A stretch of 64,000 nt of DNA from Octopus vulgaris (GCA_951406725.2 OX597828.1:20770001-20834000); one strand, 5' to 3'. Counted from the first letter of the stretch, positions 19,150 to 61,748 are shown. Translations and numbers: made by a program. The notes: generated by a model not told the origin, from the sequence alone.

Positions 19150-19585
19150 ATATATATGAAAGAAGGTTTGAAAAAACAATGGACTTTTAAAAATGTTTAT
19201 TGACTTGACCGGTTTCACTTTTTTAGAAAAAAAATTGTCAAAAGTAAGATGTAAAGCTTTGTATGAGATTTGTTGTGTTACGTACTGGTTATCACAAAAG
19301 TATTAAAATACATATATACATTCTTTGATAATAATAAAAAAAATTTTAAAAACAGTATACAAGAAAGTACTTATTGTAGTCTTGTCCTCGAATACTTTCT
19401 TGTAAACTGCTTTTAAAGAAGGTGTAACTGTATTTTAATACTTTTGTACTAACCTGTATTTAACACAACAACTCTCATACAAAGCTTTACATTTTACTTT
19501 TGACAATCTTTTTCTAAAAAAGTGAAACCAGTCAAGTCAATAAACATTTCTAAACGTCCATTGCCTTTTCAAACCTTCTTTCATA
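19150..19585. repeat. Foldback element with ~200-bp inverted arms; a single-arm copy lies at 34020-34290
   Basis: Left arm is the reverse complement of the right arm; each carries a hammerhead-like motif. Confidence 0.85.
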
Positions 19586-19925
19586 CACACACATATATAT
19601 ATATGTGTGTATATATATATATATATATATATATATATTATATATATATCTTTGATTATCTAACCCTTGTCGTTCTATGTTACTATTAGTTTCAAAATTT
19701 CCCACACAAGAATTGACATCTCACTGACAGTAATCTTCAACTAAATAAGGGATTTAAATTTTAAAAATTAAGTACTTCTTCAGTTTTTAAATCAGCTCTT
19801 ACATTCATTGAATTGAGCACTTTTCCTTGTGGTACATGCAACTTGCTTGTTCCTTTTACAAGTGTAAATTCCCCAATTTTCCAACCACTCTGCACAAGAC
19901 TAATACAAAGAGAGGTTCTGTTTAA

Positions 19926-21101
19926 GCTAGAAAAGAAAGAAAATGAAACGAATTATGAAGACCAGAATGAAAGGTTTTCAGGATACATACATAAGGAATG
20001 GAATTGGATAGTGTATTCTGAGGTTGTGTGATACTGTGTGTGTGTGTGTGTGAGAGAGAGACAGAGAGAGGGAGAGAGAGAGAGAGGTAGAGTGCTTGTA
20101 TGTGAGATATAGAAAGTCTGTCAGCATGCCTAAGAGAGCATGAATGCTTCACTAATATATATGTGTGTATGCGTAGATATAAATATATATATATATATAT
20201 ATATATATATATATATATATATATATATATATATATATATATATATATATATATATATATATATATATATATATATATATAAATATATATATGTTGGAAT
20301 GGACGTGGTTGTATGGTTAAGAGGTTTGCTTTCTAACCATGTGGCTTCAAGTTCAATTCCATGATGCAACAACTTGTGTAAGTGTCACCTACTATAGCCC
20401 CGAGCAAGCCAATGCCTTATGAGAGAATTTGGTAGATGAAACTGTTTGGAAGCCCATCATATATATAATATATACATATTACATATACGTAAAGATATAC
20501 ATATAGATAGATAGATAGATATGTGTGTATGTGTGTGTATACACACATGCATACATAAACACACATCCATATACATATACGTATATGTAAATAAATGAAA
20601 TAAAGACAAATTCTTCCAAATAATAAATTCCAAAATAAAGATAATAATAATAATAATAATAATAATAATAATAATAATAATAATAATAAGGCCGGCGACC
20701 CAAAGCAACAAAAATTATATCGTAAAAGAAAATTACAATGTGGAAAAAGAATTGTTGCATGTGGTAAAAATGAATTTCATAACGGCACTGGGGATCAGTG
20801 GGGATGCAGACACACATGCACATACACACACAGCAGATATATATACATACACACGAACAGATCCCACAGATTTTTCGGAAAGATGCTAGAAAAGAAAGAA
20901 AATGAAACGAATTATGAAGACCAGAATGAAAGGTTTTCAGGATTAAAGGAATGGAATTGGATAGTGTATTCTGAGGTTGTGTGCGTATGTGTGTGTGTGT
21001 GTGTGAGGGAGAGAGACAGAGAGAGGGAGAGAGAGAGAGAGGTAGAGTGCTTGTATGTGAGATATAGAAAGTCTGTCAGCATGCCTAAGAGAGCATGAAT
21101 G
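19926..21101. repeat. Local direct duplication of ~220 bp (19926-20146 and 20885-21101)
   Basis: Both copies run from GCTAGAAAAGAAAG to GAGAGCATGAATG. Confidence 0.9.
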
Positions 21102-21806
21102 TTGAAAGGTAAAAAAATTATATGAGCGTTTGCATGTGTATGCATTGTGTGTGTGTATATATATGTAGATATATATATGCATGCATGTGTGTGTTTATGT
21201 ATGTGTGTGTATATACATATGTATGTGTGTATATATATATATATATATATACACACACACACACATATATATATACACACACACACACACATATATATAT
21301 ATATACATGCACACACAAATAGTCATACATGTTTGCACATAATGCGTGTGTATGTGTGTGTAAATATATCTATATACATACTATATACATACACCTGATG
21401 TGCAAGTATATGAAGAATATACAGATAAATATATATACACACATATATATATATATATATAATATAATATATATATATAAACAGATGTATATGTATATAT
21501 GTACATAATGTGCACATGTATGTATGTATATATATATATATATATATATATATACACACACACATATACATACATATATATATATATATGCATGGGTGTA
21601 TGTTTGTGTGCATGTGTCACACTTGCAGGTGCTCAGACATTCAGTGCATACTGTCACACATTAGCCAGCCACATTTAGAAAACCAGTGGGGTCGGGCATG
21701 GGCCAAACAATTGGAAATTATGGCGGTGGTGGCAATGGTGGTGGTAGTGGTATGAGAAGGAAGTACATGTATGAGGTGCAGCCTTTCTTTGTATAGAATA
21801 GCTTAC

Positions 21807-21878
21807 CAGCCCTCATCCTGGAGGGACTCTTCAGAGGACTGCCTTGTGCCTGGTCACCAAAACCCTGGTCTCCTGCGG
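21807..21878 (-). CDS. EndoA: Probable alternative cassette exon of endophilin A (72 nt, phase 1-1): AAGDQGFGDQAQGSPLKSPSRMRA
   Basis: cccctctcttaaacag acceptor, CTG|gtaagc donor, frame-preserving, shares FGD..SPxxSPxRMR with the exon at 25122-25199. Confidence 0.75.
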
Positions 21879-23959
21879 CTGTTTAAGAGAGGGGCCGCAC
21901 CAGCGGAAAATGCATTATCATCATCATCATCATCATTATTATAACAGACAGAGACAGGAAAGAGAGTAAAAGGAAAGGAACAGGAAAAAGGAAACAAAAA
22001 GCGAGAAAGACAGACAGACAAAAGTAGAGGAAGGAAGGAAAAGCAAGAAAAAAGGAGAAAGAAAGAAAGAAGGAAAGAAACAGGGTGAATGAAGGAAAAA
22101 AGGAGAAAGAAAGAAAAGGAAGGAAGGAAGAAAGAAAGAGAGAGAAGGAAAGGAGGAAAGAAAAGCAGGAAGGCACACAACAATGAAGAAAGCAAGGAAG
22201 AGAGAAAGAGTGAAAGACAGAATTAAATGAAAGCATAAAAGGAAGAAAGAATGAATGAATGAGAGAGAGAGAAACTGACCTGTGTGTGTGTGTGTGTGTG
22301 TATGTCAACGACAGTATGTATACATCTATGTATGTGTATATGAATGGATAGCTGGGTGTGTGTATATGTGTGTGAGTGCGTGTGTGCTTGAATTGTATAT
22401 ATATTTATTTTTTACATGTGCAATATGTGAGGGTGTGCCAATGCAGGTGGGTGTGAAGGTGTGTGTGAATGTGTGTATATATATATATATATATATATAT
22501 ATATAGGTAAGTACATATATATATATATATGTGTGTGTGTATGCAAGTGTGTACATAAACACACCTTTGCCAGGTATGTTTGTGATTTTGCAAGTGATGA
22601 ATAACATTAATTTACTCGAAAGTGGAGGCAGGTGGAAAGAAATATAAGGTTGTAATAATCAAAAACAGTAATTAATGTAATGTATTAACTACTACACTAC
22701 ACATAAAATTTACAGGTGTAACATGTATAATCAGGCCATACCAAGGTTTCACATGGAAAACTCAACGGTATGACACTGATATTTATAGATGGCAATTAAG
22801 ATGCTGATAAGAAACACAATATGGATTTAATCCTCAAATTTCCTACACACATATATACATAGTTATACATGTACATATGTATTTTGGTATACGCATACAA
22901 ACATATATGTACACATACATACAAAATATATTTACATATATTAACAAATACATGTAGATACAGTCACAAAAATTACAAGAAAATACGTGTACAAAGTACA
23001 AGTATACGTAGCCAGACAGATACATACACACAAAAAAAATACATGTACATATAAACATACAAATATAATAGATACCAACATGAATATATAGATATATGCA
23101 CATATGCACAGATATGGATACATATATACATATATACATATATACATAATTATATGCAGAAGAAAAATTTAGAAAAGAAACAACAGAGAAGATAAAATGT
23201 GACCCATTAAAATCATATTGGTATGCAATATATATATTTATGTGCATTTAAGAGTATGTATATGTATATATACTACTTTCTCAGTTATACAACTAAAGCC
23301 TCTAATTACATGACTGAAAGTTGTCAGGGTCTCCTTGGTGTTGTGATTTTCAAGATTCTCCAGCAATAAGAAGACTTGTGGGTCAATTCCTGCAGGAAAT
23401 TTTCATCTACTTTCTTTTCCATCTAAAGGGTATTTTTATCTGATATTATGAGCTATTATTTAGCACTTCATTTCAGTAGAATCTCACAAAGTCTAATACT
23501 TTAATTTCTCAGAGCTTCAAATGAATCCAAATGTGTGTGTGTGGATGGAGAGGAGGAGTGCGACGTCCACTTCCCAACCACGGGGTTTCAAGTTGTAGCA
23601 CCTTGGGCAAATGTCATCTAGGCAGAAGCCCCAGACTGACCACAGCTTGGGGAGCAGGTTTGGTAGACAGAAACTGTCTTATATGTATGTATGTGTGTGT
23701 GAGTGCATGCACATGTTTGTGTGTATGTGTTTGTCTTCTTGCATTGACATTGTATGATAGTTGTAAGCGAGCATCATCATCATCATCATACAAGTGGTAC
23801 CAATCATTCCAAATCTTCCATGGAAACACTCCAAGCTAAGTGGGAACATTCACTGGCTTGGAAACAGGTGGTGGATCACTGAGGTACGGAAGAACCTGCC
23901 TTGCCTAATCCTTTCACAGCTGTATAAGAACGGAAAAATGTACATTGACCATCCTGGTC

Positions 23960-60787: not shown

Positions 60788-61049
60788 TGGCGCAATGGCC
60801 CAGTGGTTAGGGCAGCGGACTCGCAGTTGTAGGATCGCGGTTTCGATTCCCAGACCGGGTGTTGTGAGTGTTTACTGAGCGAAAACACCTAAAGCTGTAC
60901 ACTTTCGCCACAACTTTTTCTCACTCTTTCTTCTGTTGGCCTGCTCGCTTAGCCAGCGGGGTGGCGTCATTTGAAGGCTAAAACAATGCGAAGCGCATTG
61001 TGACCAGTGATCTGTAGCAACATCAGATAGCCTGGTTGGTCACAGTGAT
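60788..61049 (+). mobile_element. tRNA-derived SINE family E (3' part also at 919-1041 -)
   Basis: TGGCCCAGTGGTTAG A box and GTTTCGATTCCC B-box-like motif; tail shared with 919-1041. Confidence 0.8.
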
Positions 61050-61096
61050 GTATGTATGTATGTATGTATGCATGCATGCATATATGTATGTATGTA

Positions 61097-61378
61097 TACA
61101 GGGTATAGTGAATAAACTATCATCTAAATTACACAAGAATGAAAATAACACTGACATCTCATTTTAACAGATATATTTACCAAAATTACTTAAAGATATC
61201 CTGAAAAACTAAGGAGTAAATTTATTCAACCATGGCCTCCAGACGACTTCAGAATCTCCTGCAACTCTTCTGGACGGTCTCCTTGTTTAAGTTGGTGAAT
61301 TCTATCATAAACCTTTTCTTCAGTTCATCTTTGCTGTTACAAGGAGTTTTCTTGGTCTCTTGCTCAACTGCCCCCCAC
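61097..61378 (-). mobile_element. Tc1/mariner (maT-like) transposase 3' remnant
   Basis: WGAVEQETKKTPCNSKDELK..CRRF*SRLEAMVE; TA|CAGGGT terminus. Confidence 0.7.
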
Positions 61379-61701
61379 TTAAAGATCAGTTGTGTTCTCA
61401 GGGTTGCTTTATTTTTACCCTTAACTTAGAAACAGAGGATGACATAGTGCTAGATATAAAAAATAAGCCATTTGGGGGCTAGAGATATTGCAGAAAACGT
61501 GAAATTCTTCGAGCAGGCATGTGTCTCATGTAAAATAAGTGCAAGCAATGTAATCTGTAATGACCCCATGTGATGCTGATGACCTGGAGTTGCCTCTAAT
61601 ATATATAGATGTATGTGCATGCATGTATATATATGAGTGTGTGTGTGTGTGTTTGTATATATATATATATTAATATATGCATTTCACGTACATGACATCA
61701 G

Positions 61702-61748
61702 GCGCCTGATGAACATACTTCTCATGTATGTGAAACTATTAGTAGCGC
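61702..61748 (+). ncRNA. Type I hammerhead ribozyme, canonical core
   Basis: GCGC-CTGATGA-ACATAC(ttctcat)GTATGT-GAAA-CT(att)AG-TA^GCGC: all three stems and every core base present. Confidence 0.85.

Follow-up and report, generated by a model that had tools for sequence, protein, structure and literature searches.

Penelope-type minimal hammerhead motifs in the introns of an octopus endophilin-A gene

A stretch of 64,000 nucleotides (nt) of the Octopus vulgaris genome (GCA_951406725.2, OX597828.1:20770001-20834000; hereafter the window, with positions counted from its first nucleotide) contains many short sequences resembling hammerhead ribozymes, several with unusual cores. Are these motifs genuine, which elements carry them, and what does a departure from the canonical core mean for the ribozyme? 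Our answer, to which we assign a probability of about 85%, is that the loci are dispersed, mostly decayed terminal repeats of Penelope-like elements (PLEs) together with short derivatives likely mobilised by PLEs, each with a minimal type I hammerhead whose cleavage would depend on dimerisation or on the help of a protein.

Hammerhead loci in the window and in the genome

Family profiles built from genome copies, and seeded from the window itself, found 17 hammerhead loci between 19189 and 61784, belonging to seven families: four loci of F1, five of F2, three of F3, two of F4 and one each of F5, F6 and F7 (Table 1). The window has the base composition of AT-rich animal intron DNA, and five minus-strand exons encode part of a BAR-domain protein, which over 49 residues shares 98% identity with Octopus proteins that bear the name endophilin-A. 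The gene overruns both ends of the window, with its first coding exon past the end and later exons before the start, so that all hammerhead loci discussed here are intronic. An earlier note on this DNA, which had counted about 17 loci of several families within the introns of one gene, is borne out on this point.

We also used a descriptor of the PLE-type minimal hammerhead, with at least 4 bp in each of stems I and II, an optional base after A9 and a palindromic helix III. It gave three strict and six relaxed matches in the window, far above what 60 local dinucleotide shuffles gave (0.017 and 0.033 on average). An earlier descriptor without the bulge had found three sites in the window, one of them real. 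Five of the 17 copies pass the full descriptor (19241, 29233 and 34138 on the minus strand, 26522 and 61706 on the plus strand), and 13 retain the pattern core...GAAA...UH; damage most often consists of CpG decay in the ACGU palindrome. The intronic hammerhead motifs are real, and most copies are dead or decayed. Among four sites proposed as canonical CUGANGA hammerheads, the one at 61706 is intact, those at 40483 and at 24536, where a CG-to-CA change breaks the palindrome, fail the full descriptor, and 50135 shows no hammerhead closure. The palindromes of helix III are ACGU, ACCGGU, AAUAUU, ACAUGU and ACGAUCGU. The proposal that stem III is mostly a loopless palindrome holds in general; the helix at 61706 (F5) is an odd-length near-palindrome, ACUAUUAGU. 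A supposedly separate palindrome, AACGUU, is ACGU counted together with A14 and U17.

With the same profiles, 400 kb of random genome (40 stretches of 10 kb) yielded 28 loci, five of them intact. The suggested density of one locus per 4 kb is therefore a local figure; random DNA has one per 14 kb. Extrapolated to the genome length of 2.80 Gb, there would be about 196,000 family loci (95% range 130,000-283,000) and about 35,000 intact ones (11,000-82,000), a total that covers the profiled families only and includes F6 and F7 profiles containing the very copies counted. An Rfam scan of the window returned no hammerhead family among the 150 matches listed of 473, mostly microsatellite-driven miRNA matches, and a direct-repeat search was overwhelmed by (TA)n.

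Families, cores and conservation of the fold

F3 is the terminus of a Neptune-type PLE with a reverse transcriptase (RT) and a GIY-YIG domain, and its copies in the window are 5'-truncated ends. F3 sits 3' of a same-strand open reading frame (ORF) for RT and GIY-YIG in three genome stretches (L243, L208, L206). In L206 and L208 the GIY-YIG domain runs on into F3; in L243 an inverted RT-GIY-YIG remnant is flanked by F3 at both ends. The 5' ends of F3 are variable, and the longest copies pass via a CA-rich spacer into the GIY-YIG domain. The F5 5' ends are variable in the same way, and its helix III is identical to a published Hydra motif; no linked ORF was found for F5 in the loci examined. F5 is probably also the 5'-truncated end of an ORF-bearing PLE. 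The genome holds in addition an intact family with a 781-residue RT and GIY-YIG ORF, to which the L243 remnant is 37% identical, and a terminus with a U3-A8/ACAUGU hammerhead. Direct terminal repeats are 99-100% identical in four of eight fetched copies, and the family is apparently active. The junction of F3 with a Neptune-type ORF, together with PLE-type inverted ends and optional tails, upholds the Penelope link that the earlier note had proposed. Its description of the elements as non-autonomous suits F1, F2 and F4, all short and fixed in length; it does not fit F3, the end of an ORF-bearing PLE, nor probably F5.

F1 has the appearance of a short interspersed nuclear element (SINE) with a tRNA-like head. 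Its order is a 5' head with A and B boxes, (AAT)n, a hammerhead (C3-G8, ACGU) and a tail. By box pattern, 16 of 24 full heads have an A box, 13 a B box and nine both, eight of these nine with 45 nt spacing; shuffled heads gave no pairing at tRNA spacing in 4,800. ARAGORN and Rfam at default settings called no tRNA in F1 heads. Relaxed ARAGORN called one, mostly Ser, in five of 24 heads against two of 480 shuffles, while a threshold of 75 gave pure noise. The head is followed within 450 nt by the F1 hammerhead in 20 of 23 seeded and six of six unseeded cases, and inverted duplications of F1 take in the head as well. About half of the F1 hammerhead copies have no head, as expected from 5' truncation. 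In 14 complete units, TTTT occurs on the sense strand of three and on the antisense strand of all 14, so that the sense strand is mostly free of RNA polymerase III (Pol III) terminators. F1, with its tRNA-like head, its inverted ends of the PLE type and its optional tail, is likely a SINE-like element moved by Penelope enzymes. Rfam matched Vault RNA at 24255-24345 (minus strand; 38.9 bits against a gathering score of 34, E 4.9e-5); instead of a vault RNA, the match may represent the head of a SINE with Pol III A and B boxes.

The unusual cores U3-A8, G3-C8 and A6U, which the earlier note had reported, are states of whole families rather than changes in single copies. The 3-8 pair is C-G in F1, F5, F6 and F7, U-A in F3 and G-C in F4. 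F2 keeps the pair but deviates at position 6, where six other families and its own sister family, F2b, have A. Covariation of the core is thus seen between families; within a family the 3-8 pair is fixed. We scanned 1.02 Mb with a blind descriptor in which bases 3, 6 and 8 were left free. The 77 matches formed nine multi-member clusters and four singletons. The majority 3-8 pair was Watson-Crick in all nine clusters (five C-G, three U-A, one G-C), and one singleton was non-Watson-Crick. All eight matches in 400 kb of unseeded DNA had a Watson-Crick pair, when shuffles gave 0.54 matches of any kind each (110 shuffles). Elsewhere in the fold, all four Watson-Crick combinations occur at 2.1-1.1 across families, and 10.1-11.1 is G-C, or A-U in F5, or U-U in F3.

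The F4 unit is about 215 nt long, starts some 20 nt upstream of the core and may have a tail of about 55 nt. G3 and C8 are present in all 25 aligned best-matching copies, and a 35-nt pattern over the core and stem II has 1,142 exact genome matches (reversed control, 0). A C3-G8 sister with the same stems was sought: five genome matches differ at 3 and 8, none of them C3-G8 and two A3-U8. The double change C3G/G8C is known as an engineered partial rescue of cleavage (PMC11167929; PMC8495972). The F4 core is likely an active compensatory variant and is the natural counterpart of that mutant.

In three raw RNA-sequencing runs, whose species label may differ from that of the window, 11,404, 9,501 and 8,531 reads matched a stretch of 599 nt that contains F4, F1 and a third repeat. 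Reads fell equally on both strands and their ends did not pile up; no circle-type joint was seen among 15 listed of 42 read joints. The libraries are fragmented and unstranded and so unable to show cleavage, making them evidence neither way. Among the sequencing runs listed as matching, none was recorded as RNA. The third repeat, situated between F4 and F1 (L085:1974-2150), is itself abundant and transcribed, and reads extend its 5' side into a CUGAAGA-containing sequence.

The F2 unit measures about 205 nt and lies between (TA)n tracts, with fixed 5' ends. A 35-nt full-motif pattern allowing A or U at position 6 has 9,059 exact genome matches; among the first 100, U6 is present in 99 and N7 takes all four bases. 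F1 and F2 agree with the published minimal hammerhead consensus except for U6. To avoid circularity, we gathered F2 copies by the tail alone and scored 34 of 35. Identity to the column majority was 91% in the hammerhead and 77% in the tail (n = 34). The columns that varied inside the motif were N7, H17, position 6 (U in 23, A in 11), those of loop II and those at the outer end of stem I. In U6 copies taken separately (n = 22), identity was 95% in the hammerhead, 83% in the tail and 70% upstream, again with all four bases at N7. In a midpoint-rooted tree of the flanks, built without two of the rows, the U6 copies form a broad, deep group separate from the A6 sister F2b, and one A6 copy falls within this group. 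The fold is conserved across F2 subfamilies; this and the tree suggest that selection on it went on after the A6U change. The A6U core is likely either weakly active or kept as a fold recognised by a PLE protein. F2 copies often lie within 400 nt of F2b copies (L145, L146, L170), probably via shared (TA)n targeting; both have ACGU, and natural heterodimers could form in read-through RNA.

Mobilisation and competing explanations

Family copies are flanked by (TA)n or (AAT)n microsatellites and span the cleavage site. Within 1 kb there is a second, inverted copy in 14 of 29 F1 loci, 16 of 24 of F4, seven of 14 of F5, four of 24 of F3 and one of 24 of F2 (a few loci overlap). Same-strand neighbours within 1 kb are rare (8/115 loci overall; 2/24 in F4, 3/24 in F2). 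There are two classes of 3' end, in proportions of 10 to 15 among 25 F4 copies and 13 to 17 among 30 F1 copies. In the mechanism we propose, a PLE protein would nick AT-rich or (TA)n DNA and reverse-transcribe, in trans, RNAs that bear the terminal module. The template would likely be uncut RNA, because the copies hold both sides of the cleavage site. F1 would likely be transcribed by Pol III from its tRNA-like head. Selection on the fold would act in master copies only, while dispersed copies drift, chiefly by CpG decay. For a Poseidon PLE in vitro, uncut RNA was the main substrate, the hammerhead needed protein, and C3G/G8C partly restored cleavage; in this Anolis system hammerhead mutants were still inserted, with insertion unimpaired (PMC11167929).

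Several points weigh against the PLE-derived reading. No linked PLE ORF was found beside F1, F2 or F4, unlike F3, in about 80 best-match loci (±1.5 kb), only unlinked remnants; nor was there a partner ORF between close pairs of F4 (four stretches) or F2 (eight stretches). This search covered about 100 of tens of thousands of copies, and the autonomous partner of the three families is one that we infer from insertion signatures only. The rarity of inverted F2 pairs also counts against it. Changes at position 6 are reported to lower hammerhead activity, A6C to below 0.1 per min (PMC3088659). Wilcoxon tests of F2 hammerhead against tail gave p-values of 9e-8 and 4e-5, which overstate the evidence, as F2 copies are related and the tests not independent. 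Four of the nine blind-descriptor clusters were seeded by our own searches, and two are single inverted pairs.

How far can the PLE-derived reading be extended? A more ambitious version holds that F1 is a true tRNA-headed SINE that captured a PLE hammerhead terminus and is mobilised in trans by the octopus Penelope machinery, and that the G3-C8 and A6U families were amplified to thousands of copies with active cores hitherto known from laboratory mutants at most, A6U being selected through several waves. We hold this tentatively, at somewhat less than an even chance. The most serious competitor of the PLE-derived reading, which we consider unlikely, is that in the non-autonomous families, F2 above all, the hammerhead is no longer a catalyst and the fold is kept because a PLE protein binds it or begins reverse transcription beside it. 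U6 is fixed through a broad F2 clade with the stems and other core bases retained, insertion in vitro tolerates hammerhead mutants, and copies extend across the cleavage site, all of which speaks for this explanation. Yet the conserved F2 positions are precisely the catalytic ones (G5, G8, G12, A13, A14 and U16.1). Only one of 35 F2 copies has G at H17 and N7 varies freely, as selection on cleavage would lead one to expect, and F4 exchanged its 3-8 pair yet kept the pairing. The fixed 5' ends with (TA)n on both sides could also be explained if F2 and F4 were retrozyme-like, with tandems cut to monomers, circularised and reverse-transcribed from (UA)n to give fixed units between (TA)n tracts. 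Two F4 head-to-tail pairs, spaced 231 and 237 nt, would fit, as would the proposal that non-LTR (long terminal repeat) retrozymes are PLE derivatives (10.64898/2026.07.22.740005). But head-to-tail tandem hammerhead units, the mark of retrozymes, do not characterise the families here: same-strand neighbours are rare, inverted or solo copies prevail, and insertion into a (TA)n tract accounts for the (TA)n flanks with no circle needed. We regard a retrozyme-like origin as improbable.

The diversity of palindromes had led the earlier note to suggest a selected, family-specific dimerisation code. There are at least seven different palindromes among the clusters, and predicted homoduplexes of ACCGGU (-8.3 kcal/mol), ACGAUCGU (-10.0) and ACAUGU (-4.6) are stronger than mixed pairs (-2.1 or weaker). 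However, F1, F2 and F2b share ACGU (-1.7), so that their heterodimers equal homodimers, and the AAUAUU homoduplex of F4 reaches just -0.2. ACAUGU and ACAAUUGU each recur in separate clusters, ACGU is found in 29 of 56 published PLE hammerheads across phyla (a by-eye count), and the F5 helix III recurs in Hydra. We therefore consider such a code very unlikely, and the palindromes look like lineage markers. Least credible of all, with hardly any weight in our judgement, is co-option of the motifs to cut or regulate endophilin pre-mRNA. Three of the five intact copies (19241, 29233 and 34138) do lie on the gene's sense strand, and the window has 14 F1-F4 loci where the random sample would lead one to expect four. 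On the other side, 12 of 17 copies are broken, an intact share (5/17) near that of random DNA (5/28), orientations are mixed, and the window was chosen for its density and was the source of the profile seeds. Helix III cannot close in monomers and a copy seldom has a neighbour on its own strand, so that cutting of host pre-mRNA by dispersed copies is unlikely; for the endophilin gene the copies are probably inert.

Table 1. Positions of the hammerhead loci and host exons in the window.
Feature	Positions	Strand	Core	Remarks
F3 copy	19114..19375	-	U3-A8, 19241	intact; U10.1-U11.1 mismatch; palindrome ACCGGU; 3' end of Neptune-type PLE
F3 inverted partner	19382..19587	+	19500	palindrome broken
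Endophilin-A exon	21808..21879	-		residues 161-184
F1 inverted partial copy	24343..24427	-		3' half of hammerhead and tail
F1 copy	24414..24658	+	C3-G8, 24536	head 5'-truncated; (AAT)n; ACGU palindrome decayed to ACAU
F2 copy	26439..26656	+	CUGUUGA (A6U), 26522	intact; palindrome ACGU
F4 copy with tail	29048..29249	-	G3-C8, 29233	intact; palindrome AAUAUU
F4 inverted partner	29243..29383	+		without optional tail; position 3 altered at junction
F2 young-subfamily copy	31574..31778	+	CUGUCGA, 31642	palindrome and stem I damaged
Endophilin-A exon	33241..33312	-		residues 137-160
F2 copy	33829..33990	+	CUGUAGA, 33862	palindrome decayed
F3 copy	34016..34364	-	U3-A8, 34138	intact
F1 copy (profile match)	37283..37593	-	UUGAUGA, 37386	U3-G8 wobble, otherwise intact
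F6 copy	37861..37993	-	C3-G8, 37965	long stem II damaged; palindrome ACAAUUGU
F7 copy	40461..40594	+	C3-G8, 40483	long stem II; helix III damaged
F2 old copy	41204..41361	-		core broken
F2 copy	42630..42815	+	CUGUUGA, 42702	palindrome decayed
Endophilin-A exon	46248..46391	-		residues 94-141, BAR domain
Endophilin-A exon	50350..50517	-		about residues 44-94
Endophilin-A exon	53453..53527	-		residues 22-46
F1 complete unit	55911..56178	+	56079	tRNA-like head with A/B boxes 55921-56000, (AAT)n, hammerhead, tail; U16.1 changed, stem II damaged
F5 copy	61697..61784	+	C3-G8, 61706	intact; no bulge; helix III ACUAUUAGU

Known systems and other repeats

The motif class is already known: it is the minimal type I hammerhead described by Cervera and De la Peña in 2014 in the pseudo-long terminal repeats of metazoan PLEs (PMC4209133). 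The octopus families share with it the type I layout, the nucleotide between 9 and 10.1, G10.1-C11.1, a loopless or short palindromic helix III and the U3-A8 variant. They also share the presence of many families per genome, mostly as single or opposite-strand inverted copies with few in full PLEs. F4 has G as the bulge nucleotide, where the published consensus has H. The 56 representatives given there include no cephalopod motif and no motif with G3-C8 or U6, whereas the octopus families have both cores, and the extrapolated copy number in octopus lies above that reported. The available text of a survey of natural core variants names U3-A8 and A6C, neither G3-C8 nor A6U (PMC3088659). In the literature that we searched there were no octopus PLE hammerheads, no natural G3-C8 or A6U core and no PLE-mobilised tRNA SINE; Lünse, Weinberg and Breaker (2017), the principal work on variants of PLE hammerheads, may list such cores. 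The natural G3-C8 and A6U cores and the tRNA-headed F1 thus look new, provisionally, in a literature comparison made without that paper, Repbase and Dfam.

With Neptune-clade PLEs (Craig et al. 2021, 10.1101/2021.04.23.441226) the octopus elements have in common the RT, Cys-rich linker and C-terminal GIY-YIG, inverted 5' copies, an optional tail and a bias for insertion into microsatellites; F3 and the intact family were assigned to this clade by the linker motif. The intact family differs by an additional ORF of up to about 479 residues, which lies upstream and overlaps the first (L193:1287-4684, L194:768-4468), unlike canonical endonuclease-bearing PLEs, which are described with a single ORF. 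Two more PLE families with GIY-YIG ORFs (L199:1408-3000, L202:2582-4983) have 3' regions without a hammerhead under the descriptor used. The Anolis Poseidon element PAc (Frangieh et al. 2024, PMC11167929) resembles the octopus families in its uncut RNA template, two 3' ends (tail), AT-rich target and lack of RNA-sequencing ends at the cleavage site; C3G/G8C, an engineered rescue mutant there, is the natural state of F4.

F1 is reminiscent of Schistosoma Sm-alpha/Sj-alpha (PMC6765202), a non-coding mobile repeat with a Pol III-type promoter upstream of a type I hammerhead. Sm-alpha/Sj-alpha is often tandem, its monomers are freed by cleavage and the promoter is lost in single copies; F1 is dispersed, its head and uncut hammerhead form one unit, and it has a PLE-type minimal motif, inverted ends and a tail. 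Non-LTR retrozymes (PMC7229834; 10.64898/2026.07.22.740005) are likewise short non-coding hammerhead repeats proposed as non-autonomous PLE derivatives; they are defined as tandem repeats that make circular RNA, in contrast to the mostly solo or inverted octopus copies.

These families bear on the in vivo role of the PLE hammerhead; the one in vitro system found cleavage dispensable for insertion. F2 and F2b amount to a natural experiment, in which a core base differs, both families were amplified and the rest of the F2 fold is conserved. If the more ambitious reading is right, F2 and F4 would test in nature whether ribozyme cleavage is required for PLE-type mobilisation, and F1 would widen SINE partnerships from long interspersed nuclear elements (LINEs) to Penelope elements. 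F2 and F4 would be missed by standard descriptors that require CUGANGA or UUGANAA. Trans-mobilisation assays are feasible, as this genome also has intact autonomous ORFs of the Neptune type.

Some further sites in the window were considered. The site at 50135 was rejected as a hammerhead, with closure of GAAA, stem II and stem I in none of 11 aligned copies of its repeat family. That family (50117-50226, plus strand) has 41 genome matches, starts with a conserved CUGAUGA and forms an inverted pair at L227; it is possibly a degenerate PLE end. Sites at 49350, 44849 and 45176 were not counted as loci, having no homologue among the stretches examined. The first of these (plus strand) is an F2-like hammerhead remnant with A6 and G12 lost and a score below the profile threshold, and a possible 18th locus. 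A fragment at 18828-19196 (minus strand) resembles the C-terminus of a LINE reverse transcriptase, which we take to be of the RTE type. A 98-nt inverted repeat, 94% identical and about 110 nt apart (47534-47842), is like a PLE-type inversion and has no recognised hammerhead. Two large, abundant SINE-like repeat clusters are unrelated to hammerheads: one at 2498-2901, with about 17 other places, which is the source of many chance UUGACAA matches, and one at 3117-4146, with about 32.

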